63,971 bases of DNA, filler included, from Craspedostauros australis (GCA_030167865.1; 18 parts of 18 records of this genome joined end to end with filler, not necessarily neighbours in it); one strand, 5' to 3'; shown: positions 15,649 to 44,896, numbered from the whole stretch's first letter. Program-made: numbers and translations. The notes: generated from the sequence alone by a model not told the origin.

Positions 15649-16674
15649 ATGGCAACAGCAACAGATGCAACACCAACAACAGGTGCAGCACCAGCTTTTC
15701 CCTACCCCAACCGACATCGCCCTCCTCTCTATCTACTCTCCACTGAAGATCGCACCATGAAGATCCGCCCTGGAACCCACGTATCGAGCCCCTGTGGATC
15801 TCTTGTGACCTCTGGGAACAGCAAGGGCAAGGTTCGAAGCATTCTGTATGGTGTTGTCCTCAAATCTCTCCCCAAGAATCACTGGGTTGTGCACTGGCGT
15901 TCCATCAACACAGTGTGTGAACATGCAGGCACCAAGCTGACTTTGCTTGACAAGACACGAGTCGAATTGGACAGCAGCTGTATTGAAGAGCTCATCCGTG
16001 CGCAGAGTGTTGGGAGGGGATTGTCGGAACTAAACAAGCACTACAAGACGTTGCAGTACCACAACCTCTGCCGCAACACATCCACGTTCAGCAACGCCTC
16101 TTATTCACACCACACCAACGTCTTATCCCCAGGGAACAGCGCCTCAACCAGTCATGGTGCGGACACGGACGTCCCCAACCAAAATACAGATGAGTCCGAG
16201 ACAGGAATCTTGATGAACAACAAGAATGATGCAGCAGATGACACCCATGGAACCTATGACTCCAGCACAGGCGATTTGCTCACTGGAGACGAATTCAACT
16301 ACATCATGCAACGTGAAGAAGAGTCCCCAGGATACATGCACATGGAGGAGAAGAACCAATTGATGGATACAACAGTCCTGGTTGGCAAGCAAAAGAACGC
16401 ACAGTCATGGACGGTGGTGGATGACAAATCAGTTGAACAGTGTGACGAAGAGCCTCAAGCTGAGCTTGGCGTCGCAGGTTTCGACTTCGACAAGAAATGC
16501 TCGCAAGACGACACCAATCGTGACCGCATCAACCTCCTGGGACTGGTGCAACATCTATGGCCTGGCAATTGGAAACGACAAGTTGACGCTCTCAACAGGT
16601 GTATCATGGCAGGCGCAATTGATGTTGGCGGCAGGCGGAACAATGACCCCATGTCTGTAATAGAGCTAAACTAG
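15649..16674 (+). pseudogene. Probable N-terminal part of a piggyBac-like transposase, truncated before the DDD core
   Basis: 341-aa ORF ending LGVAGFDF...INLLGLVQHLWPGNWKRQVDALN, resembling the pre-catalytic region of piggyBac-like proteins (recalled similarity). Upstream TTGGCTACAG repeats at 15050-15090 and 15298-15318. Confidence 0.45.
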
Positions 16675-16992
16675 TAACCACCTTAGCGAGAGAGACTACG
16701 AATCCTCCGACTCGTCAGCATTCCAGTAGATCGAACGGACACTTCGCCAAACCCCACGTTTGGAGACAGATCCGGAACCTTGAAGCGGATCTTCGGAATT
16801 CGTGTCAAGGAACCAATGGGGTTCCGATAACCAAGTTTCTGACACCCACCATCGCCAAAACGCCGACGCACGGAACCAAAGCCACAACAACGNNNNNNNN
16901 NNNNNNNNNNNNNNNNNNNNNNNNNNNNNNNNNNNNTTAATTAATTAANNNNNNNNNNNNNNNNNNNNNNNNNNNNNNNNNNNNNNNNNNNN

Positions 16993-18059
16993 AAGCATGC
17001 GCCGTTCTGGACGACCACATCTCCGTATGAGCGATATCCCACTCCTTCGCAAGAACGTGAGCTGGTGCACGCTACTTCACCAACGAAGGTGACTCCTGTG
17101 ATGACGGGATCGGGATCGTTCTGGTTCATGGACTCGCAAGCACTCACACCAGTGCACGAAGACTCAAGGATGAGGGGGTTGGGTCCCATGTCCTTGCATG
17201 CGTTGTCGCCGGTGCATGCAGTGAGAGCCACGGTAATGAATGGCTGTGATGGAGAGGAAGGGGAGAGAGGAGCGGCCAAGGTGCATCCTGATGTTCCTTG
17301 GCAGCATGCATCGGCGATGGGTGGTGTCTGCGTCATCCCGATCGTCCTGCACGCTTCCTTGATTTGATCTGGCCGTTCTGTGATGAGGGCTGTTCCAATA
17401 TCGGCCATCAGCGTGAGTTGGTCAGCGAGCTCTGCGTTCATGGCGAATCTGTTGAAGAGTTTGCGTGCCGCTCCTTCTCCCACGTTGCCTGCACATGCGA
17501 AGTAGTTTTGCAGGTCGGCGGATCTCCTGACGGCGGTCACGGCTGTGCGGCATGATTCCTTGGTGGCGTCACACATGATGAGCTTGATGCGGCTTTCATC
17601 GGGAGTGAGGACGGTGGCGCCGTCTGGTCTGCACATGACGAAGATCAACGAATCGAAGTCGAACGGAGCGGCGGATGGGTTGAAGGTCGGCGGGGAGGTC
17701 GGTGAAGATGACGCGGTGTGGGTAGGAGCGCTGGTAGGCATGTGTGTGGGCATTTGGGTCGGCATGGCCGTGGGCAAAGGAGGCGGGTTGAAGATGGCAG
17801 TCTTGGGTGTCTTGGCGATGACGATCGGCGGGATGGTCGTCTTTGAAGTCTTTCCACCACCACCGCCTGGAGTGGGATTAGAATTGCCGAAGACTGCCGT
17901 CTTGAGTGCACGAGTGCCTTGCATCGTGTCATACGACTCCGTTTGATCCGTGGCCTGGACACGCTTTCCTTCGCCCAGTTTGGCTTCGGTCGTCGCAAAG
18001 GAGGCGAAGAGGACGAAGATAGTCACCGCGATGGGTGCCTTGGAGGGAAAGCTGATCAT
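16993..18059 (-). CDS. Secreted Pro/Thr + Cys-rich protein, 3'-partial (copy 2)
   Basis: Differs from copy 1 at 5 amino acids, all in the N-terminal third. Confidence 0.75.
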
Positions 18060-19791
18060 TGTTGGGTTGACCTCGCACTCGTGGTACGGTACGTGTGTTT
18101 TCCTTCTGATTGTCGTGTCTTGTGCTTGTACTTGGGCTGTGCTTTGTTGTGCTGCGATTGTGGAGGATGGCAGGACTGTGTAATGATGGAGACGAGATGA
18201 GAAGTATGTACTCTATTGCGCGATTGTGGCAGTGTAGTTGTTGGCGAATGATTGCGGATAGCACAGAAGTGCAGCAGCGCGATCGTGATGCAATCCGTTC
18301 CCGTCACGCCTGATACCTTGTTGGCTTGCTCAGTTGCTTAGTTGGTTGGTTGGTTTTGTGGCCTTGCCGAGATTATGAGAAGAGTCAGACCTGCGATCGC
18401 AGAGCTCTGGTGTTGTTTCGGAGGGTACGGGCAGTGTGCATTCTGCTTGTACTCGTTCCTGTAGTGTGTGTTGGCATTCCGCTCCGCCTATTTGATGTGG
18501 CGAAGTGAGTTGTGTTTTCGCTTGTGCAAATTGAAAAGATGAGCACAGAGGACCACAACACGTTGAGTTGTGCTGCGTTGTGCTGTGTTGCAGCGCGACG
18601 TTGCGTGGTGAGGAGTAGTACGATTGCCGATCTGGTGGGAGATGTTGTGGTGACTGGTCCACATCGGGAATGACTGTCGGCGATGTGGAACTCGTGCCTT
18701 GAGAGGAAACGCCTCGCCAACTTTCACTGACTTCGGTGCCTTTTGAGCTGCTCTGATCGCTCGATTGTTGACATTCATTCCCAAGTCTCAACAAAAGTCA
18801 ATGGCCAACGAAAAGACCCACTCTCCGCACTCATCGATGTCAACAGATAACGCCATTTCGCCATCCGTGGAGGTTCTCACCAAACGGATGCAAAAGCTCG
18901 TACAGTATGGTACATAAAGTGAGGACTAAATTTCTTTTCCACCAGTGCGCACCAAGTGCTTTCTTACGGCTGGTGCGTAAGCAGGTCACTGAAGCATCGT
19001 TCGTGTTCACCATTCCGGATGAGACACACGAGAAAGTCAGAGACTGAAAGAACAAACAATTTCCAACACACGAACGACATGACATTTCCCAAACGTTATC
19101 AGTTTTCTATCATAGAGTTAATAATGACTCTCTTTGCGAAAACTCGATAAGCAATGCAGGAACTCACGACATTCTGGACAAACAACGAGCATTCTCCATC
19201 GTCTTTACACTTTCGATGGGATTGGTGGTCCGTTTTTCAGTCATCGCGGCAGATCATCACGCAGCAGCTCGAATTCCGCGATTGCGACCGCGGAATGCCT
19301 GGGATGTGGAATTGTGTTCCGGATTGTCATCTGCACAACAACTGTCGGAGTGGAGCTATTCCAAGTGAGCAAGCAATGATCAAGCGGTCGATGGCAGCAG
19401 TAATAGAACTATTCTCTTGCTCCATCTCCATGACGTCGCGCGCGACCGAGCTATGGAGCATTGGCGTTGTTCGAGAGCAAAGTACGAGGCACATGTACTC
19501 TGTGCTATTCCCTCTTCACACGCAGCCTGTCATCGCAATCAGACAAGGCAAGGTCTCCAGAAGTACTCGATTCTTACCCAATCGCGAATCTTCACAATGC
19601 TGCAGTGATGTGGACTGTTAACTTGATCAAAGCAGCTTGGAATCAATGATTTCCAAATCTGCTCACAGGGTACCGCCAGATTGCCTCCACTTGACGGATA
19701 CACTTCGTCCTCCTCGTTGTCCTCCTCCAACGGCAGCTGGGATATCTCCTCTTTGTCATGCTGCTCGTCTTTCGCATCGCAATCAATGGCA

Positions 19792-21561
19792 TCAATCCCC
19801 AAAAATGAATGAAGGAACTGCTTTGAACCATCCTGGCAGTCTTGCATTCGTGCATTTCCATTTGCAGAGGCCGGCCGCACCGATTGTGCCGTACACCGCC
19901 ACGATGACGAAGATTGCCGCCTCCAATTGCTGCGAAGTCAGCTTGCTCTTGAACAGGGTGGCATTGTCCGTACCATCCACGATCAGACCCAAGATTCCCA
20001 AACAGAACACAAGCCGGCTATTCACGACAACACCAACCCATGTCGTTGATGGAAAGACCATCAAGCATCCGTGCGTCCAGCTTTCGACTGCCCTCACAGT
20101 GAAGCTATCAAGTGTGTGCCTGCCCCACCGACTTGCCACCTCAAAGTGCCTTGCAACCGATGTCACGTCCCGAGCAAGGAGGGAGAGGCAGACGAAGTGT
20201 ACACTCCACCATAATGACGCATTGGTGACCCTCGTTAGTTGTGCCAGTTGGAAGATAGAGACGAACAACCACATGTTGCGAATGTGCGTATCTCCATCCA
20301 AGAAGTCCGAGACAGTGCTGAATCGTCCCACAGCGACGAACGCCCAGAAGCCAGTGATTGTAAGTGTGATCCCAATGACGAATGCGACCGACAAGGATGG
20401 CTCTGATTATTTGTACCAGAGACGAGCGCTGACAATGGTAATGGGAGTGTGACACACAATGCAATCCCTGGTGATCTGGAACGTTGGATGTCATTGACCC
20501 ACCTTGTCCCATCTTCATTCGTTCGACTATCCCTGTGTCCACGAGAGCCGCAATTGACTGGCGAATTAACAGGTGTATCGTTGATCATCGAGAGTTGGCT
20601 CCACTTGGTCGTTTCCTTTGTATCGACATCCATGGACACGGCTGCATATCCCTCGAGCTTGAATTGATGCGATGCATGGAAAGTGCCTTCACCATACAAA
20701 TCATTGATCAATTGCATATCCTTCATGTCCTTGAACATCATCTGTGGCATCGCTGCTGTGCACCATAATGCACCATCGATCGGCTGGAGCATCCGCGGGC
20801 GACTCGCGATCTAGCCTCTGCTTGGAAGCTCCGCAGTGCCCGCAGACAAATACAACCCCAATCGCTGGTTATCATCTCGCCCTTCCTGATTTGCCTGGAA
20901 ACATACATCATTCGCAGCGATAGGGACAATGTTGCCTGCGTCGCGATATTCGTCAAGGACACGATGTCGCTCTTCGTCGCCGAGGAACCCCATTGGGTGC
21001 ATCTTCCCTATGAGTCCTTGCCGGGATCCTCATCAAGCCACATTTTTGCACCAGGCACGTACGTCGCCATTGTCCCGTCTGGCAGCGGCACGCGGTACGG
21101 ATTTGTGCTACACCTGCTAGAGCGCTTCTCCTCCTTTGCCTTGGCGTGCCATTCCCTGACTGTGTCTAACAGGAAACTGGTGTGGTCAGTCTCCCCAACG
21201 TAGCGATCTCCCACGCCGCCGCCCATCGAGCTGGAAGAGGAATCTGACTAAGGATGTAGTGGATCGTAACCCGTGTCGGATGGTAGATGAGAGATGCCGG
21301 AGGACATCCGACGGAGAAGACAGCGAGAAAGTACATGAGAATGTGTGCCACAGCGCAGTGGATCTTGGTGTTGCATGATTCTGGCCATGCCTTCTTGGCG
21401 GAGAATGGATTGACTGCACAGCTGTTGCCATCGCTGTCGACATCACTGTCTCCGCCATCGTCATCGTCGTCGTCGCTATGATTGTTGTATCTTGTTTGAT
21501 CCCTGCCAATGCCTTTTATCGCGATGGTGATAGTACTTGCCTTGCGACTGGAACAAGGCAC
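19792..21561 (-). pseudogene. Fragmented multi-pass membrane protein gene (pseudogene or intron-split)
   Basis: Chain of coding-like minus-strand ORFs (21166-21561, 21008-21226, 20811-21002, 20235-20792, 19792-20394) with an in-frame TAG at 20811 and frame changes. The last piece has several hydrophobic segments. Confidence 0.35.
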
Positions 21562-21829
21562 GATGATGCACCAGAGCAGCAGAAAGCAAGTGGCCAGTAC
21601 CGCCCAGCCGGTCCCGCATCATTCCATATCGGCCTGTCCCGCGGACCATCCCAGAAAGGCGATGATGAAGCCATTGAAGGTGATGCTGCAGAACCAGCAG
21701 GAACAACGAATCAAGTTGCAAGGTGTGTANNNNNNNNNNNNNNNNNNNNNNNNNNNNNNNNNNNNNNNNNNNNTTAATTAATTAANNNNNNNNNNNNNNN
21801 NNNNNNNNNNNNNNNNNNNNNNNNNNNNN

Positions 21830-22982
21830 AGTCTCAGCAGGAGTCTGGGATGAGGGTTTCGCTCGTTTCCTTCCTTGGCTCGATTGGATATCTTTGCTTG
21901 TTTGCACTGCTGATGGAGTCTTGCGCTTCCCTCCTTTCCTGTCNGGTTGCTTCGCACTCCACTCAGTGTAANCCGCCTTGGTCTTCCTTGTCCATGATCT
22001 GTTGCTTCCGTGGAGCATTCGGAAACATGTGTTGCTTGCAATGATTCGTTCGTTCGCCTTCTTTCGTAGATTTGACATTGAGATGCTGGTATGCACTCCA
22101 TTTGCCTTTCCCCATCTCTTGTGATTTGCAGTGGGAGGCACGCAGGCGAAAAGGTGACACTGCATGCACATCCATTTCGTTACAACCCCACATATGACGC
22201 AGGGTTTCTTCACGTTTTCACAAAAGATGGGCTCATGGCTGCCTGTGCGGAGACGTCGTTCGAGCGCAACCATGGCGGGCGTTGGGGCAGCTGGATTCCC
22301 AGACAGCAGGTTCCGGATGCTCTTTCCGTCCCTCTCCTCGCCTTCAACAGTCGGTCTACCATCGTAGATTTGATTGTCTGTATCCGAATCTGTGTCTGCT
22401 GTCTTGTCGATGGCTCCCTGAATAAACCAGTTTCCGCGTTCGCTGTCATCAGATTCTCTTCTGTTGCTGCCAGCGGCTTGGGCGACGATGACTCCGAATG
22501 TCCTTCGCAATGTTTCCAACAAATCAGCAACACTGCTGCGATGATTCAGCATGTCACGGTAGGTCTGCAGCACCGTTGCGTTCTCCAGGTCTTTGTTTGT
22601 GTGGATATCGTCTGTGCAACAGTAGTGCATTAGCTTGTGCAGAAACAGAAGGATGACTTCCACAATCCGTACCACAGCTTGGCATTGGAAGGTTGCGAAT
22701 GGCGGCTGCACCTTGTGCTGCCTCATCATCCTGGTCATCAAATCAGAGCCGCCCTTGAATGAATTCCAACGGGCTACAAACGATGGAACCAAGGTGTGGA
22801 CCTTCGGCACCGGCATTGGTAGTTCCTGGCATGCCTTCCATATCATCAATTGGTGGAATACATCCTCTTCTGTCAATGCCGCAATGTGTCGCCCCCCAGT
22901 TGAGCCCCTGTGGGGGTTGCGTTTCGAATTCAGATACTTTCGCAGCGTCTTGCCTGACGCTGCCTCGCGGGACGCGGCAGTG
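21830..22982 (-). mobile_element. C-terminal part of a piggyBac-like transposase
   Basis: Frame open across the whole contig. RWNSFKGGSD matches the piggyBac YNxxKGGVD third-Asp motif, and there is a C-terminal Cys-rich domain CVIC-x7-CMQC-x4-C...CFRMLH. Confidence 0.7.
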
Positions 22983-23082
22983 NNNNNNNNNNNNNNNNNN
23001 NNNNNNNNNNNNNNNNNNNNNNNNNNTTAATTAATTAANNNNNNNNNNNNNNNNNNNNNNNNNNNNNNNNNNNNNNNNNNNN

Positions 23083-23243
23083 AATGGTGTCGTTTCCGAT
23101 GATACGATCAAGCAATACTTGGAGCAGGCGTTGAAGCACTACCACGCATGGGGATGCCTGTTGAAGATCAACCTCATCTGCCACTCTCGATCCCGATACG
23201 TCAAGAGTTGGCACCCAGAGAAGATACAACAGTCGCAGACACC
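23083..23243 (+). CDS. C-terminal fragment of another ATPase-TPR-family-like gene
   Basis: Manual translation NGVVSDDTIKQYLEQALKHYHAWGCLLK resembles the HFDEAMRLYKEWGADGK tail of 2864-6157. Confidence 0.4.
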
Positions 23244-23355
23244 ATATATATATATATCACACGGATTATAACTGTTAAGTCATGCGCCGGGGGCGCTTTG
23301 ATTCCGCCTCATTTATTCTACGTGTCGGCACGCAGCGGGAACGGATGCATGTGTG

Positions 23356-26300
23356 TTACGTCTGTGTATTGGGAAGCTGCCGGGGGTTGGGGCTTGGCTC
23401 GCGTAGTGGCGGTGTTCGGGCGGTGCCGCCGTGTGTGTGGGCGTGGCTTCGACGGCTATGGTTGCGCATCCAGTTTACTAGCACCTTATCGGCTGGCGGG
23501 GCAGAGTCGCCTAGGCCTTGACGCAACGCTTGGACCCACGGAACGAGCTGGCTGATCGCTTCGGTGCTCGGAGGGTGCTCCCAGAGTGGCCGCAGCACAG
23601 CTGGTATGGTGGCCGGCAGCTGTGTACGCAACGCTTGGAAGTACTGGAGCAGAATCGGAGCCATGTCATCCGAGGCGAGGTTCACTTGGGCCTCGTTTCG
23701 ATCCTGCCATTGGGCTAGCACGGCGTGCCACAGGGTGTTGGTGACACTGGTCTGCCAGTCATGGAGCAACCGAGGGCTCCGCCTGCGACGATGGGGCGCC
23801 ATGGGTGGTGCTTGTATTCCCACTGGTGGGCCCATCCTCCCCAGACCATGGCAGTCCAATCAATCTTGCTTTGCTGCAATTGTATTGCCTTGGTGGGGGA
23901 ATCGCGGATGCCAGACGGCGGAAGACCGCTGGTGGTGATGCGTTGGATGGCGGTGCACACCGGCTGGGCGACGGCCGGTGGTGTTGTGGGTGGTCGCACG
24001 ATTGACCGCACCTTTTGTAACGCCTTGGTCCAGAGGGCGCGGCTGGATGCGCCAGGGCACATAATGATGTGAGAGTTGTCCTCAGATAGCCCGCACCTAG
24101 GGCAGCGTTCGGACTTTGCCTGTTGTCTTCTCGCCATATTCTTGCCGCTGGCGCTGGTGCCTGTCATGAGTTTGAGCAGGGTGCGTCGCTTGCCGCCTTT
24201 CCATCTCCGTGAGACCGAGCGCAGAGGTGACCAGTCTACTTCAGCCGGCTGGCTGCTTCCCCATCTATCACACCATTTGGCTCGGATGTCGTTGCGTAGG
24301 AGGGCTTTGGATACTGTCCAGTAGTTGAGGTCAGAGAGCGTGCCGCGAGCTGTGCTTAGATGCCATCCTCCGGTCGGAACCACAAGCTCAGGGGTGGCCA
24401 GCCCAGGCTGGGCGAAGGCTGTGTCCCAGCGGCGGCCTGCGTGCACATCTGCGAGCACGTTCATTTTCTCCCAGTCTGACAGCTGGCGGCCGTCGTCATC
24501 AGCGTGGCCTTGAACCTCTTGCTGCCGGAACCTCACTGGAGACCTCTGTAGGCATCTGACCAGTTCAGACCACAGGTCGTGGTTGGGCTTGCCGGGCTCT
24601 GGCCATTTGAATGGATCGACCACTCGCAATGCTCTGTTGTTATTGCACGCGATTGTGGCCGCGCCTTGGACTCCTGCCCATTCGGCTACCGAGGTGATGA
24701 TCCACACTGTCATGAGTACGCCGGCAAGCTCCGATCGATTTGAGTCTGTGGCATGCGACCCGGCCGGGACTTCTGACGCTGCGACGATTTGGTGGGTGTC
24801 GTCGCTTGGGTTGTGCTGGATGACGGTGGCTGCCGTCCCCTGGTTGTTTTTGGCGGATGCGTCGCTGCATGCTGAACACGTGCCCTCGGCAATGGCTTGG
24901 ACCAGGCAGTGGATGTTGCCTCGGACTTGGACGTTGGACAGCATGTGCGATTCCGCCGGCCCTTTGCTTCGCAGCCATTCGCGCAGTGTGGCTGGAGTCG
25001 GTGGCCTGCGTATGCGTCCTCTGGATATGATGACCATGCCTGACCGCCTTGGTGCTCGGTCGACCACAGTGACGGACGCCACTCCAGGCCTGTCAGCGGC
25101 TGAGGCCTGACCTGGCAGCAAGATCGCCCCGTTCTGCTGGGTGGTGGTACGCCTTGCCGGGATGAGCAGCCATGGCCCCAACGTGTGCCGCATGTGCCAT
25201 CCTGGTCGATCTGTGGCCACGAGCGTCGCCAACACTTGGTCCCACGCCTCCCAGGCTTTCTTGGAGACACTTCCCACCGATGGCCATTTTGTGGTCCCAG
25301 CTGGCAGACGTGAGCGCTGGAGGATGCGTGACCGAACCTGATCTCCTTGGGCGTTGGCAATGTCCGACAGCCAGAGCACTCGTAGATGCATTCTGGCCAC
25401 ATTTGCCTGCGCAATTATGGAGCGATGAACCCCGGCGAGTATGGCGAGGTGCATAACGGGGGCGTCTCCTTCTCTCGGTGGTGTCTCCTGGAGGTGTCGC
25501 TCTGTCATGACGATGCCCAGTTCCGTGGCCGATCGGAACGTGTCCTGCCACCACGTGGTCGCCGTCCAGGCTCTCCACTCAGTTTCGGTCTGTTGGAGAC
25601 GGCCGGGGAGTCCTGTCCATAGCTCCAGGTGCCGCAGGGACGTGCGTAGCAGCCGGCCTGTGTCTGTGGGCCGTTCGAAGTGTCTCACTATCATTGTCAG
25701 GTGTGCGACCACTTGGTTGGTGTAGAGGTGCGGAACTCCCAGTCCCATGTCGTCACTGTGTCCGAACACATAGTCCCTCGCGATGGTCCTTGCAATCCCC
25801 ATGGATGGCAGTGCAGTGGTGAAAGCTGCGCTCATTACTGCTTCCCATTGTGTGCGAGACATGGTGGTAGCTGGGGAGGTGTATGTGAGAGCTGGCCACA
25901 GCACTGATTTCGTGGCAATCTTGACGTCCTGCTTGTGAATTCGGGATGTTCGGATTTTGTTGGCCCATTCCCTTGATTTCAGCAGAGGATATTCCGCATG
26001 CTCCGTTTGCCGTCCATCTCGCCGCGACACCATGCCCAAGTATTTGGATGCCGATCTGGGGCTGGAGATGGCCAGTTGGGTCTTGTTGCCTGTGGGGTTG
26101 CGCATGTGAATGCTCTGGGTTGGAGCGGTGAGATCGTATACCCACTTGACTCGGTTCCACTTGAACCGTATCAGCTGCCAGAAGCTCTTCGACGGCTCCA
26201 ACGCTCCTCCCATGGCCGTCAGCAGATCATCCCAACTGCTCATAGCTGTTTGAAACATCGCTGCTTGCTCGTTGGGCTGTGCCGTCAGCAGGCTGTGCAT

Positions 26301-28967
26301 GACATTGGTGTCGTCGACATAGGCTGTGCCCACTATCATGTGCTGCTCGTTGGTGATCGGGTTGTGAACCCTGAGTCCGTGGCCCTGTGACCGCATGCTA
26401 TCAATGATGGCAGAGCTGATGAGCAGCCAGCCCGTCGGCGCCAATCCTAGTCCCTGCACCAGGCCTTGCAGGTGGTTGTGGCGCTGTTTGCCTGAGTATG
26501 AGGACTCTGATGTTCCTGCCGATGTGCGGATCCTGTGTGTCATAGACTGAAGTGTGTTCAGGGTGCTTGTGATGGGAGGCTTGGGCACTCCTTGCCTTTG
26601 AAGGGCCAAGCTGAAGATGGGGTGTGCGATGCGGTCGTAGCATCCTTTCGCGTTGTTTGAGCATATTGCATAGTGCGCTCCTGTGATTTGGTGGATGTCG
26701 TCAATTAGAACTGAGTTGAGCAGGACTTCTTGTGCGGTGTGGGCCTTCCTGCTGCCATACTGTTCAGCTGCGATGGTGCCTTGGAACTCTGCGTGGGCAC
26801 AAGCTTGCTTTCCTAGGAGGCAATTGTTCATGTTGAAGTCGCCCTCCATTAGCCCAATTGTCCGGGTCTGGGTAACAGAGAGGTCGCCAGGCTTCTTGCG
26901 GAGCTGGATGTCCACGCACTGTTGCCACCTCTTGAGACTGTATCCTGTGCGATAAGGGATCTCGCGCATGACAGCATCGATGGTAGCCAGAGTCTTGTCG
27001 GTAGCATTGACCTTCCAGCACCCAAAATGGACTCCTGACGGTCCGGACGAGGTGCTCTCCTTGATCTTTGCCCATCCTTGGGAATGGTCAGGCTGGCTGA
27101 TCTGGAGTTGGCCGGCGTCCCACTCTGTTGTTCCAGAGGGTTTCTTGAGAGCTTGTAGCAGATCTCGTGTGCGGGCCTCGATTTGCGTCGGGACTATTCC
27201 GTGGAGCACCGCTGTGGCCACAGAGTGAGTGCCGTAGCGTCCGAGCGCGCGTTTGAGAGGCCTTTGGCACACCTCTGCTCGCCATGCTTGGCTGTACTTG
27301 TCCACGTTGTTGTTGCAACAGGCCCTGGCAACGTCTTCTCCGGACGTAAGCAGTCGCCCACTACCACCTGGTCCATTGTCTACCACTATCGACACTTGCG
27401 CGTCAGACCCTGCGGCCTGCAATGACCACTTGATACTTCGGTATATGGCCTTTGTCTCCTCGCGCTGAAGTATTTGAGCTCGGTATTTGGATGTGTTGCG
27501 TCCAGATCGCGTCACTTCTGCTTCGTCTTCTGCCAGGAATGTCCATCGGTGGGTGTCTGCGTTGCGTTTTTCTTGTTTGTACTCCTTCCATGCCGAGTTC
27601 TTGTGGTGCTGCATTTCGGCTGTCGTCATGCCTCTCGTGCGCGTCGTCAGCTTGGCCTTTTTTGGCCGTGTCTACTGTCCGTCCGTTGATTTGGTGACCT
27701 TTGCGGCGCTTGACGCTGAGCGTCCAGAACTTGTGCTCCCAATGGAGCCTCGCCATGATCGGTGAGAACGGTACTTGTCCTGTGCGCACTTTCCTGCACT
27801 TGCTTTCGGCGTGTAGCATCGCCGTCACCCTGTCGTTGCCAGTGACTCCAGCCTTCTCGCTTGCAGCGGTGAGATCGGGCCTGCGCCGATGTCAGCGTCA
27901 AGTTCTTGTGCCCTTTGTAGGAGCTTGAGTGTGGTGGCTTGCGCGGTGTACACTTGCTTGTACTTCCTCACCGTTGCGGGTTGGTTCATCTGGAGTCTAC
28001 GTCCTCGAAATGGCATCGTAGGCGTCTTGGTCGGCCCGAAGAGACCGGCTTCGCCCACATCCATCCATATTGTTCTGTGGTCCCAGCTGCCGTAGGCCGT
28101 GGCGCCGAGCTTTGTCGGCCTGATATCGCTCGTTGCCCATATTCTGTCGATGGGGACGTGGCTCCTATTCCGGATCATGGTTGCGTAGGGCCGGGTGATT
28201 GCTGTGGTGTGGTGCTCTCGTAGCCCTTCCGCTGACATCATGTGGGCGATCTTGGACCGTCGGATGTCCATATTCACGTCTCCTCCTATGACCACGGACT
28301 CGCCTGCTTGTTTCCGCTGCGCTATTTGGGTGCTGAGATCTTGAATGAGGAGGTCGATGGGGTCCAGCATGGACTGCCGTTGCGCCGCTCTGACCGCTTG
28401 CTGGTTGTAGACGGTGCCTGCTGTGTGTGTCGATTTGGTGGGAACGTACACTGACACTGCGCGAACTTTGATGCCTTGTCTGCCCTGGAGGAGCACGCTC
28501 GCCCATCTGCCGCACTTTTCCGGGTCGTTGTCGCGAGCAAGGACTCTCCCTGCAAGTTTGCCATGCACCACTATCGCTGTGCCTCCCCATTGCCTTGGGT
28601 TGCTGTGCTCGGTGCGGCAGTGGGCTGTGCTCGTCTTCGTCATCCTCAGATGCTGGTCTGCTCTGCGGTCCAGGGTCGCTTCTGTGGGTATTTTACTCCA
28701 GTTAAGGCCAACCTCTGTGAGCATGAGGATGTCTATTTTGTGTTATTTGACCGTCTGCCACAGGTCGTCGTTCTTTGGGTCCGTGGCGTCCGGCGGTATG
28801 CTGCCCACGTTGAGTGCGGCTATTCTGATTTGGGTGGCCGGCTTGTTGTCCGTCTTTTGCCCCAGGTGTTGTAGCTGGTCGCTCGATTCATCCGATCTCG
28901 AGCGTCCGGTGTTGTCGGGTCCGTTGCGGTTCGGGCTGAACTGTGTCTGTCTGTGGCTGCCTATCAT
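23356..28967 (-). pseudogene. LINE ORF2: AP endonuclease, reverse transcriptase, RNase H, CCHC finger
   Basis: APE motifs LNVG, LTEVGLNW, GGDVN, PIDRIW, WDHR; RT motifs AKGCYDRI, QGLVQG, AYVDD, KYLG; RNase H motifs SDAS, RSELAG, VQGHAD; CPRC-x7-H-x3-C. In-frame stop at 28743-45 and frameshifts near 27830, 27630 and 23800. Confidence 0.9.
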
Positions 28968-30079
28968 GGCGACTGGCCTCCATTCGGCGGCGGAGGATCG
29001 CCGTGGGGTTTGCCCAGTTCTTGACGGAGCGCCTGCACTTGTGCCAACAGCTGTGCCTCCCTTGTCTGAGTCTGGTTGTATTTGGTGTTGGCGCCGGCGC
29101 GCAGGATGCTTTCCGGATTGGTGGCGTTTTGGGGGTTGTGGCTTGGAGTTTTGGAGCCGTCGTCGCTCTCGTCGTCCGCAGTTGGGTTGGGCACAGCTGT
29201 GTATGCTGAGTCCATCGACTTGTTGGCGGTGCCGATCGTTGAGTTGGGGTTGAACAGGCTGCGGTTGTCCAAGGCGGCGGGTCGGTGGTTGGTGGGCATC
29301 ATCTCTGGGATGTTTGTGATGATTTCGCTGGCTGGGAATTCCTCGTCGGCGATGTCCTCGAGGTTGTGGGTATCCGGGGATGTGTAGTCGTTTGTCTCCG
29401 GGTCGTACACTATGTTGAGACTCGCTATCCACACTTCCAGGCTGAACCATTTCTCTGCCTTGGGTCCAACTTTGTGCCTGGAGATGGCCGGCAGGAGACT
29501 CATGAAGTGCTTGGCTTCCTCGAGGTACTCTGGGAATGAGTGTGCGACGATTTGGTCGTCCGTGCCTCTCGCCCTGTCTACACTGTGGACGATTCGTTTC
29601 CCTTCGTCGTTTGTTTCTCTCAGGATGAGTTTCCGGAGGGTGATGGAGTGGCTGTCGTTACCTTTGACTTTCTTGTCAAGGTGTAGCACACCGTCAGAGT
29701 CGGAGTACTCTATCACCGATAGGATGGCTTGATGTTTCGCCACCAGTCCGTCGAGGAATTCACTCTTCTTTTGGGACAGTTGCTCGTACTTCTTGTCGGG
29801 CAAAAACCGGAAGTTGGTGGCTCCCGGCCTTTCGTCTTTGGTGTTGAACAGGTTGGTCACCGCTTCCACTGCAGCATATGCCTGGGATCGTTCGACCTCC
29901 AGCTTCACTGCTCGCCACGGTTGTACCGTCCAGTGCCTTTGCCGTCCTTGTATTTCTCCCTGGTCTCGTCACTGACTTGAATGATGTTTTTGATCTTCCC
30001 TCCTACCCTGATGTTGCTGTTGGTTCTTCGGAAACTCTGGTTGATGATCTCCACTGTGCTGTCAACGTCTGTGAACCCT
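28964..30079 (-). pseudogene. LINE ORF1, 5'-truncated
   Basis: 314-aa ORF (28964-29908) directly upstream of ORF2. Coding-like sequence continues in another frame up to the LTR junction. Confidence 0.7.
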
Positions 30080-30880
30080 TGTTGGCAAGTTCCGTGATTG
30101 GTAGCCTACGATCGTGGAGGGTGGTGTTGGTTGATAGTTGTTCGTTTGCTATTTCATTTCTTGGCTACTCCGATCCTCTCTGTGTACGCCCGTTCTCTTG
30201 CCCGATGCTCTTGGCACTTCAATTGGTCTTGTAGATTCGGTCGTCCGACTATGAGTCGGTACGCGAGATGCTCTCTCGCTCCTCTCTGTATTCTCTCTCT
30301 CTCTATCTCAGCATCGCGTGCTTCGTGCTACGCGATATTACATGTTCAAAGCGTACTCCGCATTCGACACTCCGTTCGTTCAGTACTGGTTCCTACTCCA
30401 TGAGTACTTACCATTTGAAGTTCACCTTCTGTATCCATGATGCTGATCCCCTTCGGTCATCGGATCTTCGCCTCCTGCTCTGACTTGGAGACAGATGTCG
30501 ACGTGATGACACGATGACATCCTGTTGACGTCAGTAGGCGTCCTTCTGCTTTCCAGATGCCACGTTCCATTGGTGATGCAGTGGTCTGTCAGATGATATC
30601 GTCATCTGAGGTTTAGTTGGGAAGTACCTCGAGATTCTCTTGGTACCATTGATGGATGGACGGACGATGTTCTAATTCTCTCAGAAATCGTCGATTGCAA
30701 ATTTCCTCCAGAAATTCTGCTCATTTTCGTGTGTTCCGTTTCCGCTGTAATTCTGACGAATCACAGCATACTATCGACACGAATGTAGTTATACCGTCCA
30801 AGTGCGTATGAGAGAATAACGGGTGAACGATGCACATATACACGTACATCTCGGCATATACTCACATGTACATCTCGACA
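30080..30880. mobile_element. LTR family A copy (801 bp), no matching TSD
   Basis: TGTTGGCAAG...CTCGACA; highly similar to 44653-45474 and to the reverse complement of 61520-62332; flanks AACCCT and TGAATA differ. Confidence 0.85.
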
Positions 30881-33091: not shown

Positions 33092-34291
33092 GAACACCCA
33101 ACATTTTGTCCGATTTTCACTTTTCTAGCTCGTGATCTAATTTACCGGGACTTAATACACTGCGTTGAGACAGAAAAGTGAATCGCCTGAAATCCTGAAA
33201 ATCGTAGATAGGGTTACGCTATTTCTATTTAATTGTCGTTGGTCCAGGCAAGAGAGAGACCGGACAAAAGCGGAGAAACTTGGTCAGACCGGACAGACCG
33301 GACAGACCGGACAAACCGGACAGACCGGACAAAACTCAAGAATTTATCGAACTATTTAACGGACGGTTAATCGAATATAACGGACATTTGGATCGTGAAG
33401 AAACAGACAAAACTACTTCGCACGGAGTGACGCAAGCCAACCCAAACCACAAGAACAGATCAGTGAAACAAGACAACAAGCCAGCTTCGCACTGAAGTAT
33501 GGCATCATGCCAATGCAAATGTCCAGTTCTATTGTGTTATGTGTGTTGTTCTTATTACTGTTTTGTGGTATGACATCAAATCTCAAAGAGTTCTGCTCCA
33601 TCATCCTGATGGTATTGCACAATGACACAAATGGCTTCAAACACATGCTTCTGCTTTTCTGTGCCATGCAAAAAGTGATCTCCAGCACGCTGAAGAACTC
33701 CAGTCTCTCATTGAAGGTCTCATGATGCAACCGTGCTCTGCTCTTGAAGTTTTCAATTTCTGGCCCATCGAGCTCATTTGGTGTTCACATCATATTCTTT
33801 TTCCATACGACTCGTCCTGTGCCCACGATCAGCAATGATGACTTTTCCGCCTGTGATCTGATGCAACAATTCTTTACAACAAATAGTCAAGTCATGTTTA
33901 CCTCCTTGGTGGAGCCCGTGGATCCCAACACACTTTGAGTGGCACACAATGATTGCGATCTCGTATTTGAGAGCACCGTGGTTGAACTTCTTCGAGCCCC
34001 ATGCCAGATCTGTGTTGAGTGTTGAGTGTTTCTNCTCCCATACATGAAAATCTGTGCTGTCAACTGTGGCAATGAAAGCTGTTCCCTCTTGATCATTCAA
34101 TGAGCTTGGCCAAACAATCATGTCAGCTTTCATTGCTGCAATCATTTTGATCCAGCACCATAGATGACTCCATATTGCATACTATCAAAATATCCCATAT
34201 GCTGCATCAAGGATGTTGGCATTCTTTGGATAGGTCCATAGAAAGCATAGAACTGCAAGGAACATTCAGAAGCCTCTTCCAGTGTTGTCAT
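33092..34291 (-). mobile_element. Decayed autonomous PIF/Harbinger-type element with DDE_Tnp_4 transposase pseudogene
   Basis: Terminus CTG|GAACACCCAACATTTTGTCC; ACCGGACAG-type 9-bp repeats at ~33283-33332; translated pieces TVDSTDF, SKKFNHGALKYEIAI, IADRGH and HETFNERLEFFSVL match HARBI1-like D, D, E motifs. Confidence 0.8.
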
Positions 34292-34623
34292 NNNNNNNNN
34301 NNNNNNNNNNNNNNNNNNNNNNNNNNNNNNNNNNNTTAATTAATTAANNNNNNNNNNNNNNNNNNNNNNNNNNNNNNNNNNNNNNNNNNNNTGATTGGTA
34401 GTCTCCAATCCCTTGTAGCTTGATAATTCTCACTTGGTCTTGGTTCGTACCCAGGGGTACGCGCTTCGCGTTGGCGGACAGTCGTGAGAAAACCAAGACC
34501 AAATATTTTTGGGGGGAAATTGTCAAATTGGACTAATCCGATTACAAGGAAACTCCGAAGAGTGTCCTGCTGTCGGATGTCCAAGGCCTCATGTTGTAAC
34601 TGCCAGCGTCAAGGCGATCATCA

Positions 34624-36708: not shown

Positions 36709-37237
36709 CTTAATGCATATAATGGAGTGCATTATGATAACACAAAATGAAAGCGCGTGCGTACATATGTCATGAATTTGTGCTTTGAGGAATAGCGTTT
36801 GTGCTCGTACGACCTCCAGGTCGCAGTTGATGCACCAACGATAACACTAGTTGTGGAGTGTTTTTTGAGTTTTACTCGTGATGAGTCGTGATAAATTAGA
36901 CTAAAATAGAGCACACCCAAAACCATCCAAACAACTGCTTATGATGTTATATCTCAACAACACATCGTTTAAAATTAAAAATAAACAGTGCATCCGGACG
37001 AGTGTCTATCAGTGATTCTGAATATTGAAGTTAAATTTGTATGGACTTTATTTTTAATGTCGTTTTGGCTTGCTGTCTGTCAGGTGGTGNNNNNNNNNNN
37101 NNNNNNNNNNNNNNNNNNNNNNNNNNNNNNNNNTTAATTAATTAANNNNNNNNNNNNNNNNNNNNNNNNNNNNNNNNNNNNNNNNNNNNAACAATTATGT
37201 GTGAGCAGTCATTTGCGCAACTGTGACCCCTACCGGG

Positions 37238-37465
37238 TCATACACGAATCTGAATATTCGTCATGTTCCAACATACGCCTACTGCAATGGCAACAGCTAC
37301 ACCGACGACCAGGAACATCACCGTAACAATACCTTTCCAGCTCCATCCTGCCCGCCGAGAAAATGATTCAGGATTCTCATCATCTCTACCGAAGACCCCT
37401 GCAACTGCATCTGGAAGATAGATTGCATTCTCTGTGTTATCATCACATGCTGTCTCTTCATCCAT
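37238..37465 (-). CDS. Possible first exon of a single-pass membrane protein
   Basis: MDEETACDD...GIVTVMFLVVGVAVAIAVGVC, close to the contig edge. Confidence 0.3.
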   Translation of the reverse strand: MDEETACDDNTENAIYLPDAVAGVFGRDDENPESFSRRAGWSWKGIVTVMFLVVGVAVAIAVGVCWNMTNIQIRV

Positions 37466-38613
37466 TGTTGGGTATGAATGTGGCTGTGGCTGTGACTGCG
37501 GCTGTGTAGGTGGGTTGTGCGTCGGTCGCACCAGCGACGAAGATGTGAATGGCACCTGCGCAACTTGGGCTCTCTCTCTCTCTGTCTCTCTCGAGATCGT
37601 GAGTGGTGGTGGTCACTGGATGATGTTGTTGATGGATTGTGAGGGTGAGGAAGCAAGATGTTCCAAACGATTTCAGGCATGTCAACAAGATCAATCTTGG
37701 GCGAGGCAGAGAGAGCAACTTCGCTTCTCTGCAGCAACAATCTCTTGATCGCACTCATCAGTGAGGTCGTGGTGGCATTTGCACCAAGTTTGTCATTTGC
37801 ATCCGTGACGATGATAGTGGGCAGCTGAGGTGTCAACCATTGGTAGTGGTACCCTTTCGTACCGTTTCGTACCGTTTCGTACGCATTGGTGCTGTATCGT
37901 CCCCCATCGCACACGCTGTACTCGTACCACGCACTTTGACACTCATCCTTCTACTTCCACAGATGTTCTTTACTTTCACGCACACAGACCGAACAGCCAA
38001 AGCGGTAATACTCATCCTCGTCTTTGTTCGCATGCTAGGTCGCACGCTCGGAAGGCGATGGGTGGGGTGCGAGCTACTGACAATACATCGAGGAATGAGT
38101 CTTCAATGCAAACAGAGAAACAGAAGGCAAGGCAGACACATCCGCTCCTATGATCGCATGCTAGATCGCATGCTGGGTTGTACCCTCGGAAGGCGATGGG
38201 TCCGGTACGGGTAGCGGAAGAGGGAGGTCGGAGGGCAATGCCAACCATGCGAGTACACACTTCTCTACTGTACGCTCTCATCGTGTCCACCAGCGATCCC
38301 CAAAGGCTCCGTTTGGGCGTTGCGTCGATGACCCTTCCAACATGTGCTATGCGACCATGTCGGTGACGATGAGAAAGACTTCCGAAGAAAGTGAGATGAT
38401 ATATTTGATTTACCGAATATCCCACCCACCACAACAAACAGTCCGACCTTCAGCCGTCTCATCGACAAAGCAACCAAACGAAAGTCAACAAAATGAGTCT
38501 GCGGAAATTGGCGCCAAACAAAACAACACGTCGAAACAGACGCGCAGTCGCAAGCCAATGATTGGACCTCTCTGGACTGCTGAAAGATCGTGTGCCGATA
38601 CGACGATGCCAAC

Positions 38614-39554
38614 ATGAGGAGGCCACCAGCATCAGCATCAGCACCGTCGACCCCTTGGTCGGTCAGTCCGATCCTTCGGACGGTCCTTGCCATCGCCATC
38701 TTCCTCAGCCTTGCGCAGATCTCATCGCTCCGCTTCACATCCAACCTCTTCGATGTCCCTGATGTCATCATGTCGTTGTCCAAGGGGGATGGTAACGCAG
38801 CCACAGCCACAGCCACACGCTCCCAATGACCGGAAGCCGCTCAGTCAGGACTGTCGGGCGTGCTGAAGATGCCACCGTTCGACGCGATCCACGACTTCTC
38901 AACAGGCCACAGACCGCAGCGGTTCATGGCAGGGTACAGCAAGGAGGATCTGCTGCAGAGTCGCGGGGTGTCATTCGAAGACAACGAGGACGGGACCGTC
39001 GACATGAGAACGTTCCCTGCTGCGTCATCCACAGCGGACGACAGCACGCAACGGTTTGCTGGCATGACGCGAGAACAGCCCAGCGATGGCTATTCGGCCG
39101 CGTGGCTCGTCACCGTCGACCGCTTGCTCAGCAACGGCCGCATCAGCCTGCAGCATCTTCACGAAGCCAAGAGCATCAACCTGGAGTTTGGTCACTTCGC
39201 AATGAGCGCGAAGAGCTGGAATCTGCAAGCCGTCGACATGTTCGATTTCTTCGTGCATCATCTGTCGTACTACGAGAAGATCACGGGCAGGAGTGCGGAG
39301 TTGCTGGGCGACACGATCCAGCTGTTGGAAGGCATGCAGGATGACTACGAGCGCAACGACTTCTACAACAACGCCTCGAAGCAACGCAACGGACACACCT
39401 TGGCGATCGTAGCGTACTACGCGGCCAAGCTCAACGGCCCGGCATTGCGACGCAGCCAGCTGTTCCTCAACATCACGGTCAAGACTGTGGCGGCCGTGTT
39501 CCCAAATGTTGTCGTATTCGTGGGAGATCCATCCGACTACGCCTACGTCGCGCA
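38614..39554 (+). pseudogene. Type II membrane protein gene with one in-frame TGA; 3'-partial
   Basis: N-terminal TM segment (ILRTVLAIAIFLSLAQI). TGA at 38827-29, after which the same frame stays open to the contig end. Confidence 0.55.
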
Positions 39555-39739
39555 NNNNNNNNNNNNNNNNNNNNNNNNNNNNNNNNNNNNNNNNNNNNTT
39601 AATTAATTAANNNNNNNNNNNNNNNNNNNNNNNNNNNNNNNNNNNNNNNNNNNNCATTGGGTTGGAAGTGTGTGGACATTGATCTTATGGTGTTAGCAGT
39701 TGCATCACCTGGTGGTAGGAGGAGGTTGGTTCGAGAGGG

Positions 39740-41151
39740 TCAGTGGAGAAAAGCAAGAACAGTTGGAGTGAGCACCGCGTATCGACTTTTGAAATTCATG
39801 GCAGGAACTCCATCCAGTTCATACAAGGACGTACCAATTACAATCATTGCACCTGTCACCCCAAAGACGAAGGCATGATGAAGCAGTTGAATCATCTCTG
39901 ATTTCTTTTCGAATAATGCCCTCCATTTGTCATCTTGGAGATCCACGAACACATGGCTCTTTCCCTCTGTCCCATGCTCCCAATCAGCCTTCCGCTGGTG
40001 CCGTCTTTCGAGGTCTTCTGTGTCTGTCGTTGCCCGAGTCTTGATCTCCACAACAAAGACTTCATCGTCGCTGTCGTCCTCTGGATCACCGACGATCGCA
40101 AGGAAGTCGACGGAGGCGCGGGCGTACGGTGCATCGGTGTTTCGCACCACCCCCACTTGGTACGTTGCCTTCACTTGCCTTCCCTTGCCGCCCACTCCAA
40201 CACAGTGGAGGGCCTGCTTCATGAGGGGAGCTTCGTTGTTGTGGCCCAGCTTGGCGAGCTTTCCGGCCTTGCCCCGAACTGACTTCATGAACCACGATTG
40301 TAACATGAGAGTCGTGAGGTCGTGGTCAAGCTTGTGCATCCACTCTGAAGTGGTGATTCCTGCCTGGAAACTGGATGGATGGTCAGGCTCCTGCTCGATC
40401 TCCTTCATCACCAGGGCAACCAATCTCTCCACAACCTTCTCTCGTGGCATTTTCGTTGTGTTGGTCTTGGGGAGACGAGCTTTAAGGTCTTTCTTGAGGG
40501 AGGCGTCGCTGATGGCCAGGAATCGCCGTCGAACCTTGTCGTCATCAGCAAGGATGGTGCGGAGCATTTTGCATCGTGTGGCTTTGCTTCGCTGGGCCTT
40601 GCTGCGGTAAAAAATAGCCATGAGTTCGATGAAGTCTTTGTCTGAGAAGGTATCCTCTTCAGGGGCATCGTCGCAGAGAGAGGAGAGAAGTGTAATTTCA
40701 ACATGACGGGAATCGAAGGTGGGAGATGTGAGTTTGGAGTATAAATCAAGTGCGCGCAATCTTGCCTTTTCTGCTTGCAATGCTTGGAGGTACTTCGCCT
40801 TCNNNNNNNNNNNNNNNNNNNNNNNNNNNNNNNNNNNNNNNNNNNNNNNNNNNNNNNNNNNNNNNNNNNNNNNNNNNNNNNNNNNNNNNNNNNNNNNNNN
40901 NNNNNNNNNNNNNNNNNNNNNNNNNNNNNNNNNNNNNNNNNNNNNNAAGCGGCGGTGGACGAACCACAGATGGTCACCCTGGCCACAGGTGAGTCCATCC
41001 ACAGGCAGATCCCACACCATGTCTGCCCAACGCTGTTTCACATTCTTGGATGCGGCAGCCACAATGACGGTTGCGCCAAGGGGAGTTTGGGATATGGCAG
41101 CTCTGACTGCCGACGAGCGTGTTGGATTGACAGTGCATGTTTGGAAGAAGT
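39740..41151 (-). CDS. YqaJ/lambda-exonuclease-type PD-(D/E)xK nuclease domain protein, probably transposon-borne; partial
   Basis: Motifs GHNNE, GVVRNTDAPYARASVD, VEIKTR and QLLHHA in YqaJ order; spans an internal N gap. Confidence 0.7.

Positions 41152-44856: not shown

Positions 44857-44896
<40 letters not shown>

Follow-up and report, generated by a model that had tools for sequence, protein, structure and literature searches.

We report that a 63,971-base stretch of DNA from Craspedostauros australis (GCA_030167865.1; hereafter the window) probably contains, on two of its contigs, numbers 11 and 7, parts of a gene that encodes a piggyBac-fold transposase of ~1150-1350 amino acids (aa); these parts may come from a single copy of the gene or from two. 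The enzyme would have three catalytic aspartates (DDD; D1, D2 and D3 below), and a YqaJ/lambda-exonuclease-type PD-(D/E)xK nuclease with a ~250-aa helical insert would be nested at or just after its insertion domain, between D2 and D3. The window is made of 18 short contigs (1.0-11.2 kb) separated by spacers of the form N44-TTAATTAATTAA-N44. Since the contigs are merely joined by these spacers, adjacency of features across contigs carries no linkage information.

An initial annotation of this DNA had described three pieces of a possible piggyBac-like transposase with an embedded YqaJ nuclease and had placed them on three separate contigs. This is indeed where they lie: piece (i), taken for an N-terminal part, on contig 5 (12191-16892); piece (ii), a long helical region followed by a nuclease, on contig 11 (39655-41151); and piece (iii), WNSFKGGSD with a Cys-rich tail, on contig 7 (21830-22982). 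The features of contigs 11 and 7 are as follows.

40947-41149, minus strand: exon fragment upstream of the assembly gap of contig 11; matches the family N-terminal-half profile at positions 433-467, E 1.6e-5
40949-40993, minus strand: YqaJ-type N-terminal motif LTCGQGDHLWFVHRR, which closes this exon fragment; consensus Q, W and R at columns Q444, W449 and R453
40803-40946, no strand: 144-N assembly gap; provided that its length is exact, the frame is unchanged across it
39835-40801, minus strand: exon with the helical insert and the PD-(D/E)xK nuclease core; family profile 596-859/867, E about 1e-49 to 6e-51
40232-40246, minus strand: nuclease motif GHNNE
40103-40114, minus strand: nuclease motif SVDF
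40034-40054, minus strand: nuclease motif VVEIKTR
39875-39892, minus strand: nuclease motif IQLLHH
39709-39834, minus strand: intron of 126 nt, GT..AG, phase 1, skipped by a contig of the public run X1; holds a TGA at 39740-39742
39655-39708, minus strand: beginning of the following exon, DATANTIRSMSTHFQPN, truncated where the contig ends
21830-22982, minus strand: C-terminal third of a family member; profile 919-1211, open to both contig ends
22838-22861, minus strand: post-nuclease helix VFHQLMIW (contig 7)
22742-22768, minus strand: third catalytic Asp motif WNSFKGGSD (contig 7), followed by the C-terminal half of the helical DNA-binding domain
22142-22201, with C..H at 22010-22027, minus strand: Cys-rich domain (contig 7), followed by a basic tail

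On the minus strand, contig 7 is open from end to end (384 codons, no stop), and contig 11 holds one long frame broken by the N gap. WNSFKGGSD and the Cys-rich tail were both located on contig 7, as described for piece (iii). No further copy of the family was found within the window, either by a search of the window or with the family profile.

Family membership and order of domains

Piece (ii) was queried by phmmer against 1.84 billion representative proteins, and 93 proteins were retrieved at E ≤1e-3. Piece (iii) matched 49 of these 93 relatives (local blastp, E <1e-3), every time C-terminal to the nuclease match. Piece (i) matched none of them, its best E being 4.3 (blastp). The initial annotation had proposed that single open reading frames (ORFs) would hit the three pieces in the order (i)-(ii)-(iii); this order was therefore recovered for (ii) and (iii), and not for (i). 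Using piece (iii) as the query for longer homologues gave none at E ≤0.01.

A full-length family profile was made of 14 sequences of 1146-1350 aa, aligned end to end. In the window it finds exactly two ORFs, one on contig 11 (E 3.9e-48, positions 596-859) and one on contig 7 (E 2.2e-37, positions 919-1211), and the upstream fragment of contig 11 aligns at positions 442-475 of the same profile. With the PD-(D/E)xK motifs of contig 11, this match bears out the description of piece (ii) as a long helical region followed by a nuclease. The consensus of the family begins with N-terminal helices, DDDK, ~85 aa, sDRGY...GTvkR, a beta-rich stretch and LT..QG.a.WF.LR.FS.TSS. Its second half consists of ~250 aa of helices followed by GH..E, DSID, gvE.K.R, ER.QllHH and PlPP..R.iP...s.WN..KGGSD, and KGGSD is followed by further helices and, beyond a variable linker, by the tail C..C/C..C...C/C....H.

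Residues were counted over 104 retrieved proteins, a few near-identical cluster members included. The nuclease Asp is covered in 99 of the 104, the nuclease Asp and the KGGSD Asp in one chain in 61, and D1, D2, the nuclease and D3 together in 19. The latter 19 proteins have the full order D1 (DDDK), D2 (DRGY..GTxxR), nuclease, D3 (WNxxKGGSD) and Cys-rich tail, and all six catalytic residues are intact in 18 of them. The proposal that the nuclease lies between the second and the third catalytic Asp was thereby upheld. So was, for pieces (ii) and (iii), the proposal of a common family, given the 61 single chains and the match of both pieces to one profile; piece (i) fell outside it. The initial annotation had also considered that the YqaJ ORF could be the partner of Harbinger-type elements. 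This was not supported, since the nuclease is in frame in 19/19 full-length relatives and DDE_Tnp_4 has no match in 41 relatives.

The transposase aspartates are kept wherever they are covered (D1 24/24, D2 26/26, D3 61/61), and so, nearly always, are the residues of the D3 motif (W937 60/61, N938 59/61). Conservation is as high in the nuclease core (E704 95/96, D751 97/99, E770 98/98, K772 96/98, R774 94/98, Q821 91/91, H825 88/91), in the N-terminal nuclease motif (W449 33/34, R453 35/35, S459 37/37) and in the Cys and His residues of the Cys-rich domain (44-50 of 44-50 per column; Cys alone, 49-50 of 50). These near-invariant counts point to selection on two active sites within one chain. 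Wherever a checked column is covered by a window piece, the residue found there is the consensus one, including 10 nuclease columns on contig 11 and 12 columns on contig 7; contig 11 holds the equivalents of D751, E770, K772, Q821, R453 and S459.

One could argue that the three pieces are unrelated ORFs whose motifs resemble those of transposases and nucleases by chance, a reading to which the blank Pfam and PDB sequence searches (see below) lend some support, and to which we give practically no credit. For pieces (ii) and (iii) it is refuted by the order seen in blastp, by their matches to neighbouring parts of one profile, without overlap (E 3.9e-48 and 2.2e-37), and by the co-occurrence of both in 61 single proteins.

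Shorter forms of 600-800 aa also occur, with scattered profile start positions and one cluster starting at ~466. At one metagenome locus (L005), a short GT..AG intron lies inside the QG|TADW motif, at the same place as this cluster of starts. We therefore take the short forms to be ORF-calling fragments of split genes and not a separate architecture. Family members were found in diatoms and marine metagenomes, one relative coming from Attheya.

Predicted structure and active sites

To our reading of the motifs we can add a structure prediction, as the initial annotation had suggested in asking for a split RNase H fold. An AlphaFold2 model was obtained for a relative, P0087 (1196 aa), from a 74-row family alignment that included both window pieces (mean predicted local distance difference test, pLDDT, 87.8; predicted template modelling score, pTM, 0.79). 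Foldseek searches of the PDB with this model gave Tn5 (E 1.7e-4), piggyBac 6x67 (E 3.9e-4) and piggyBat (E 9e-4) at the top, and lambda exonuclease with a probability of 0.99. Alignment with VIA-align placed piggyBac first (6x67_C, Z 24.5, root-mean-square deviation 4.0, 370 aligned residues, model 68-1044 against chain 117-539), followed by piggyBat (9c0f_C, Z 23.3) and Tn5 (Z 17.0-17.6). Lambda exonuclease aligned to model residues 404-914 (3sm4_B, Z 14.6, 207/228 residues; 1avq, Z 14.4) and LHK-Exo to 446-884 (Z 13.1); Cas4-like, SOX, Dna2 and MGME1 nucleases came next. Matches in BFVD were an IS4 transposase and many YqaJ exonucleases, with a probability of 1.00. As a lead only, an Atlas feature search with residues 40-440 of P0087 had 29/30 of its matches in the PF13843 set (scores 0.90-0.91).

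As the piggyBac match spans the nuclease match, the model predicts an RNase H-like fold that is split, with the nuclease nested inside. In this model D219-221, with D220 as D1, are part of the first long strand (214-224); strand 297-301 is directly followed by D302 (D2), and strand 320-325 holds the GTxxR motif. The beta-rich insertion domain is at ~333-416 and the nuclease at ~440-915, with the ~250-aa helical insert between the N-terminal nuclease motif and the nuclease core. Strand 926-931 precedes helix 943-952, which has D945 (D3) at its beginning. Beyond a disordered linker, the Cys-rich region is modelled with lower confidence (pLDDT about 50-88), and the piggyBac alignment stops at chain residue 539, before the Cys-rich domain (CRD).

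Excerpts of the published piggyBac structure (PMC7351741) allow a comparison of the two layouts. They give piggyBac a catalytic domain (263-457) with an insertion domain (372-433) after the fifth strand, a dimerization and DNA-binding domain (117-263 and 457-535) and a CRD (553-594). The triad given there is D268/D346/D447, with Y439 and N440 contacting the hairpin and G444-G445 linking helices. The spacing W937-N938-x-x-K-G-G-S-D945 of the family is that of Y439-N440-x3-G444-G445-x-D447 in these excerpts, whereas the distance from D2 to D3 is ~643 residues in the family versus 101 in piggyBac (PMC7351741).

Within the helical insert, a SAP-like stretch, L..(16)..K..LI..L, was noticed at 40418-40528 (minus strand) and at residues 592-608 of the relative P0086. 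The window stretch gave an E of 0.043 against an MTA1 segment of the PDB. A SAP domain in the insert was not retained as a candidate, the sole Pfam SAP match being sub-threshold (E 0.0064) and in 1/41 relatives.

An intron in the nuclease region and transcripts of the family

We compared positions 39655-40802 with the contigs of a public run, X1 (share 0.12; the kind, RNA, is a guess, no listed run being on record as RNA). One X1 contig skips exactly 126 nt. With the cut shifted 2 nt to the right, the skipped stretch is 39709-39834, has GT..AG ends on the minus strand and includes the TGA. The spliced translation scores 160.4 versus 156.4 bits on the profile; its alignment reaches position 867 and the invariant VGD motif is restored. 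The skip, the GT..AG ends and the better profile fit together led us to read the 126-nt stretch as an intron. The end of the nuclease ORF, as seen in the initial annotation, was therefore an artefact of this intron. The same three observations led us to reject a nonsense mutation (TGG>TGA at a conserved Trp, 39740-39742).

An MMETSP transcript protein of C. australis is 94-95% identical to piece (ii). A second X1 contig corresponds to the MMETSP transcript product P0002, and its loose end translates to the C-terminus of P0002. The gene is thus probably transcribed in a close relative. P0002 and this contig depart from the window sequence at 40128; from 40127 downward, the minus strand of the window reads GTACGC, which is donor-like, and the target of this junction is outside the window.

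Transposon ends in metagenomic relatives

Six metagenome loci encoding relatives were found with a 5-sequence alignment, and viral contigs were absent among 71 pattern matches. One locus, L004, is 4344 bp long; it encodes 1238 aa in a single ORF and has perfect terminal inverted repeats (TIRs) of 12 nt, located 14 and 10 nt from the contig ends. By our estimate, a 12-mer inverted repeat would occur by chance ~0.5 times in 4.3 kb, and both arms would not be expected <30 nt from the ends. Another locus, L002, is L001 minus 1.78 kb of coding sequence; its TIRs are 213 bp long and 97% identical, and a conserved outer segment ends the L001/L002 element. Many clusters of the family are on contigs of about 4.2-4.6 kb, as would fit element-length assemblies breaking at repeat boundaries.

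Read inward, the ends are AT|CCC in 5/5 cases and ATAT|CCC in 4/5, the left end of L004 having TCAT. GC-rich palindromes between A/T runs were seen near both ends in L001/L002 and in L005, at the following positions.

L005, 64-179 and 6263-6286; the left end has 3 copies
L001, 3914-3966
L002, 54-76 and 2389-2411; the palindrome begins 14 bp inside the CCC terminus

These terminal palindromes are candidate binding sites for the Cys-rich domain. In the relevant excerpts of PMC7351741, a dimer of the piggyBac CRD binds a palindromic repeat at bp 17-33, and the palindrome of the relatives is ~14-36 bp inside the end. Thus, the call of the initial annotation for TIRs and target-site duplications (TSDs) to be defined from multiple copies was answered in the metagenomic relatives as regards TIRs (L004, L002); the flanks there are AT-rich, and TTAA was not seen.

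The 6.3-kb element of L005 has an extra 377-aa ORF (491-1624, minus strand), upstream of the transposase gene and opposite to it, without a Pfam family. It may be a passenger or an accessory gene.

The sequence of the ends raises another reading, namely that the same architecture belongs to a lineage of the Sola superfamily (Sola1 or Sola2), which would change the filing of the element and not its anatomy. We consider this unlikely. The family termini begin with CCC, which is typical of piggyBac. One Sola1 TIR, in the part of PMC3845634 that gives it, begins with GG. The published descriptions, as excerpted, present Sola1 and Sola2 as DDD transposons with 4-bp AWWT TSDs and no Pfam model (PMC3845634, PMC3627910, PMC5751038). 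Compared with these descriptions only, the family is alike in its DDD triad and lack of a Pfam model, and may be so in AT-rich 4-bp TSDs and short TIRs. More specifically, the ATAT beside 4/5 termini fits AWWT, a hallmark of Sola1 in the excerpted PMC3845634, and the 12-nt TIR of L004 recalls Sola2-type elements, to which the excerpts of PMC3627910 attribute 12-13-bp TIRs and AWWT/ATAT TSDs. Yet piggyBac leads the structural comparison by 7 Z units over Tn5 and has the same [W/Y]N-x3-GG-x-D spacing as the family, and the Atlas neighbours, a lead only, carry PF13843. A link between Sola2 and an exonuclease was looked for in the full-text papers searched and not found.

Evidence against a nested nuclease, and possible domestication

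Several results weigh against reading contigs 11 and 7 as parts of a piggyBac-fold transposase with a nested nuclease. First, the two contigs do not overlap, so that no complete gene is seen here, and nothing in the window matches positions 1-440 of the family profile, the half that holds D1 and D2. Second, name-giving searches were blank. The Pfam models PF13843 (DDE_Tnp_1_7) and PF09588 (YqaJ) matched 0/4 window pieces at E ≤1. No Pfam family was above threshold in any of 41 relatives (PF13843 and PF09588, 0/41, E ≤0.01), PF13843 matched 0/4 locus ORFs, and PHROG matched 0/8 proteins. The family profile found no transposase or nuclease among PDB sequences (E ≤10), giving weak zinc-finger (PHD-like) matches (E 0.11-0.85), and the PDB search with the window pieces gave no support for the piggyBac or YqaJ names either. 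Since the Pfam and PDB sequence searches were blank, both labels are recoverable solely via the family profile and the predicted structure of the relative. Third, the fold evidence comes in its entirety from the predicted model of P0087, which shares only ~20-25% identity with the window pieces. Fourth, a TTAA flank was seen at 0/5 readable ends in the relatives, where TSD and TIR are inseparable without empty sites. Fifth, P0002 and the matching X1 contig leave the window sequence at 40128, inside the nuclease exon and upstream of the catalytic Asp, with a stop after 18 unrelated codons. This divergence could be due to alternative or aberrant splicing or to a rearranged paralogue, and it indicates truncation or aberrant splicing in at least some of the copies that are expressed. 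Finally, the role of the nuclease is one that we infer.

The truncated transcript protein P0002 is also what one would expect if the window copies, or the diatom family as a whole, were domesticated or decaying transposase genes, and a spliceosomal intron and transcript-derived contigs in a close relative are compatible with such genes as well. We nevertheless hold this to be improbable. It is true that no TIRs are visible in the window, as both contigs are wholly coding, but the relatives have TIRs, recur on element-sized contigs of ~4.2-4.6 kb and include a deletion derivative. Every checked catalytic and structural consensus residue is kept in the window pieces, and the contigs break inside the gene, as expected of multi-copy sequence.

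The orphan ORF of contig 5

Piece (i) was the one part of the initial proposal that could not be tied to the family. The ORF itself exists.

15649-16674, plus strand: orphan ORF of 341 codons, largely low-complexity; ATG at 15649, stop at 16674

HLWPGNW, which had been taken for the end of the piece, is at 16552-16572, and the ORF continues for 34 codons beyond it. At the sequence level, no method gave a significant link between piece (i) and the element. Its score against the N-terminal-half family profile is -0.0 bits with the hidden Markov model (HMM); hhalign returns a single 18-column alignment (probability 0.14%, E 0.42); and no homologues came out of a near-length search, the best Atlas score being 0.77, of low recognition.

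There is some resemblance between NWKRQVDALNR (16567-16599) and the W..LE.A.N motif that the family has just upstream of D1. Piece (i) might then be the true N-terminal exon, with its ORF ending at an intron donor after ...DALN(R) and D1 beyond the contig end. The sole hhalign alignment does set NWKRQVDALNRCIMAGAI on family positions 198-215, holding W191 and N199, just upstream of D1, and both residues are invariant in the 14 full-length sequences. In the DNA, the motif of piece (i) is followed by AACAG|GTGTAT, and introns are known in this gene family. However, in addition to the HMM and hhalign scores and the lack of homologues given above, an unrelated window ORF (45200-45364) scores equally on the same profile segment (E 0.57), and the 190 upstream family residues, with their LFFG, RF..TF and EY...W motifs, have no counterpart in piece (i). 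A true N-terminal exon therefore seems rather improbable to us.

Relation to known systems

The family shares with piggyBac (Trichoplusia ni PB, 6x67; piggyBat, 9c0f), as far as the model goes, a helical dimerization/DNA-binding domain, an RNase H-like DDD core and a beta insertion domain, together with the [W/Y]N-x3-GG-x-D spacing and, to judge by the Cys/His pattern, a putative C-terminal Cys-rich DNA-binding domain after a disordered linker. It differs in having a whole nuclease and helical module between D2 and D3, in the blank PF13843 search, and in flanks that are ATAT/AT and not TTAA. The fold, the motif spacing, the putative CRD and the CCC termini point to piggyBac, unlike the ATAT flanks and the lack of a PF13843 match. 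For this reason we call the enzyme piggyBac-fold and not a member of the superfamily.

The nuclease has the fold of lambda exonuclease and YqaJ (3sm4, 1avq, 3syy; YqaJ in BFVD) and their motifs Q..W...R.....S, GH..E, D, ExK.R and Q...H. In contrast to these, it is a domain within another enzyme and not a free-standing toroid, it has a ~250-aa helical insert, and PF09588 and the PHROGs are blank. Tn7 TnsA/TnsB also combines a DDE transposase with a PD-(D/E)xK nuclease, the two sites processing the two strands of each end; in Tn7, however, these are two separate proteins, and TnsA is restriction-enzyme-like and not lambda-exonuclease-like.

Two other transposon systems have recruited nucleases of the lambda-exonuclease/YqaJ type. 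ISL2EU (PHIS superfamily) is presented, in the part of PMC4482050 that treats it, as a cut-and-paste transposon with two ORFs, one for a DDE/THAP transposase of Harbinger type and a second one for the YqaJ domain. The family resembles it in that the transposon brings its own YqaJ-domain protein, and differs in that the nuclease is in frame in the transposase in all 19 full-length relatives. In KolobokE, according to excerpts of its description, the nuclease is downstream of the transposase domain, whereas that of the family is internal. The same kind of excerpts give Kolobok a C/DxxH signature common to hAT, P and MuDR, TTAA TSDs and RR..YY termini; hAT- or Kolobok-type chains were absent among the 50 VIA-align matches listed for the P0087 model. 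A search of the full-text literature, Repbase entries and PDF supplements being outside its scope, found no report of a catalytic domain of piggyBac or Sola type with a nuclease inside it, the nearest cases being ISL2EU and KolobokE.

Proposed mechanism and significance

By analogy, the retained DDD core, insertion domain and Y/W-N hairpin motif suggest piggyBac-like chemistry, with a 4-nt stagger expected. The DDD site would perform the 3'-OH chemistry as in piggyBac: it would nick the DNA, form hairpins over the 4-nt stagger and carry out strand transfer to a palindromic, AT-rich 4-mer. The Cys-rich tail would bind the subterminal palindromes. The nested nuclease would act in cis on the 5' strands exposed by the DDD site. 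Most likely, it would resect, in the 5'->3' direction, either the flanks of the broken donor or flaps of the non-transferred strand. Resection of the flanks would steer repair to homologous recombination, and the element would be restored at the donor site. The main alternative would be a TnsA-like second-strand cut by the nuclease.

The N-terminal Arg/Ser motif (R453, S459) is, we assume, the 5'-phosphate pocket of lambda exonuclease. Together with the lambda-exonuclease/YqaJ catalytic set, its retention favours a 5'-end-dependent exonuclease over a sequence-specific endonuclease. As to the position of the nuclease, it would be beside the channel that, in the excerpted piggyBac structure (PMC7351741), holds flank, hairpin and target DNA. 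As we infer it, the evidence fits each of the possible roles, resection, flap trimming and second-strand cut.

A broader view, which we put forward tentatively and regard as possible more than probable, is that these elements, common in diatoms and marine plankton, form a lineage of eukaryotic cut-and-paste transposons that has so far gone unrecognised and has the rank of a superfamily. In this lineage a 5'->3' nuclease of lambda-exonuclease type would have become part of the insertion domain of a piggyBac-fold transposase. One polypeptide would make the double-strand break with its DDD site and at once resect the donor flanks with the second site, forcing repair by homologous recombination from the sister copy and hence a replicative behaviour of a nominally cut-and-paste element, and ATAT would be its target instead of TTAA.

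To our knowledge, every DDE/D transposase of known structure that has an insertion domain shapes the hairpin and the target DNA with it. A second, complete nuclease at this position would be a new way of building a transposase. It also bears on why unrelated superfamilies (ISL2EU, KolobokE) recruited lambda-exonuclease/YqaJ nucleases, and on what such nucleases do. The question is directly testable, the family being compact (in L004, a 1238-aa ORF and 12-nt TIRs in 4.3 kb) and having a high-confidence model with two separable active sites. piggyBac is a major genome-engineering tool, and a related enzyme that targets another tetranucleotide and processes the ends itself would be of practical interest. 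Lastly, this is a widespread diatom and plankton gene family of >1100 aa that is invisible to Pfam.

Other features of the window

In the window as a whole, 5/44 long ORFs reach the curated Pfam cut-off (2 RPE65, 1 EamA, 1 Exo_endo_phos and 1 partial RPE65). A carotenoid-oxygenase (RPE65 family) gene is at 51615-53939 (E 4.7e-74), and the start of the same contig (50212-50688) has a partial second copy of the 3' end of this gene, 87.6% identical over 476 nt. At 23718-28742, on the minus strand, a 1318-aa ORF without a Pfam family lies just downstream of an Exo_endo_phos (APE-type) ORF (E 4.7e-7). This region looks like a long interspersed nuclear element (LINE), yet it has no match to a reverse-transcriptase model at E ≤0.001.

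The starts of contigs 5 and 6 (12191-14167 and 16993-18975) are 96.4% identical over ~2 kb. Each holds a 406-aa ORF, 98.5% identical between the two and without a Pfam family. The contigs diverge abruptly after ...GCTGGTG, and they represent either a repeat or two haplotypes. A transposable-element boundary at this divergence (about 14167 / 18975) was considered and set aside, there being no CCC-type terminus there.

Contig 1 (1-1313), when reverse-complemented, is 100% identical over 1313 bp to the first part of contig 2 (2864-4176), which reflects either assembly redundancy or a large inverted duplication. A repeat family of ~0.8 kb, with 83-92% identity and in both orientations, is present on at least 3 contigs (30075-30880, 44648-45472 and 61520-62332; also 43576-43791). 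Contig 14 (47562-48659) is a tandem array with a period of ~247 bp and 91-93% identity.

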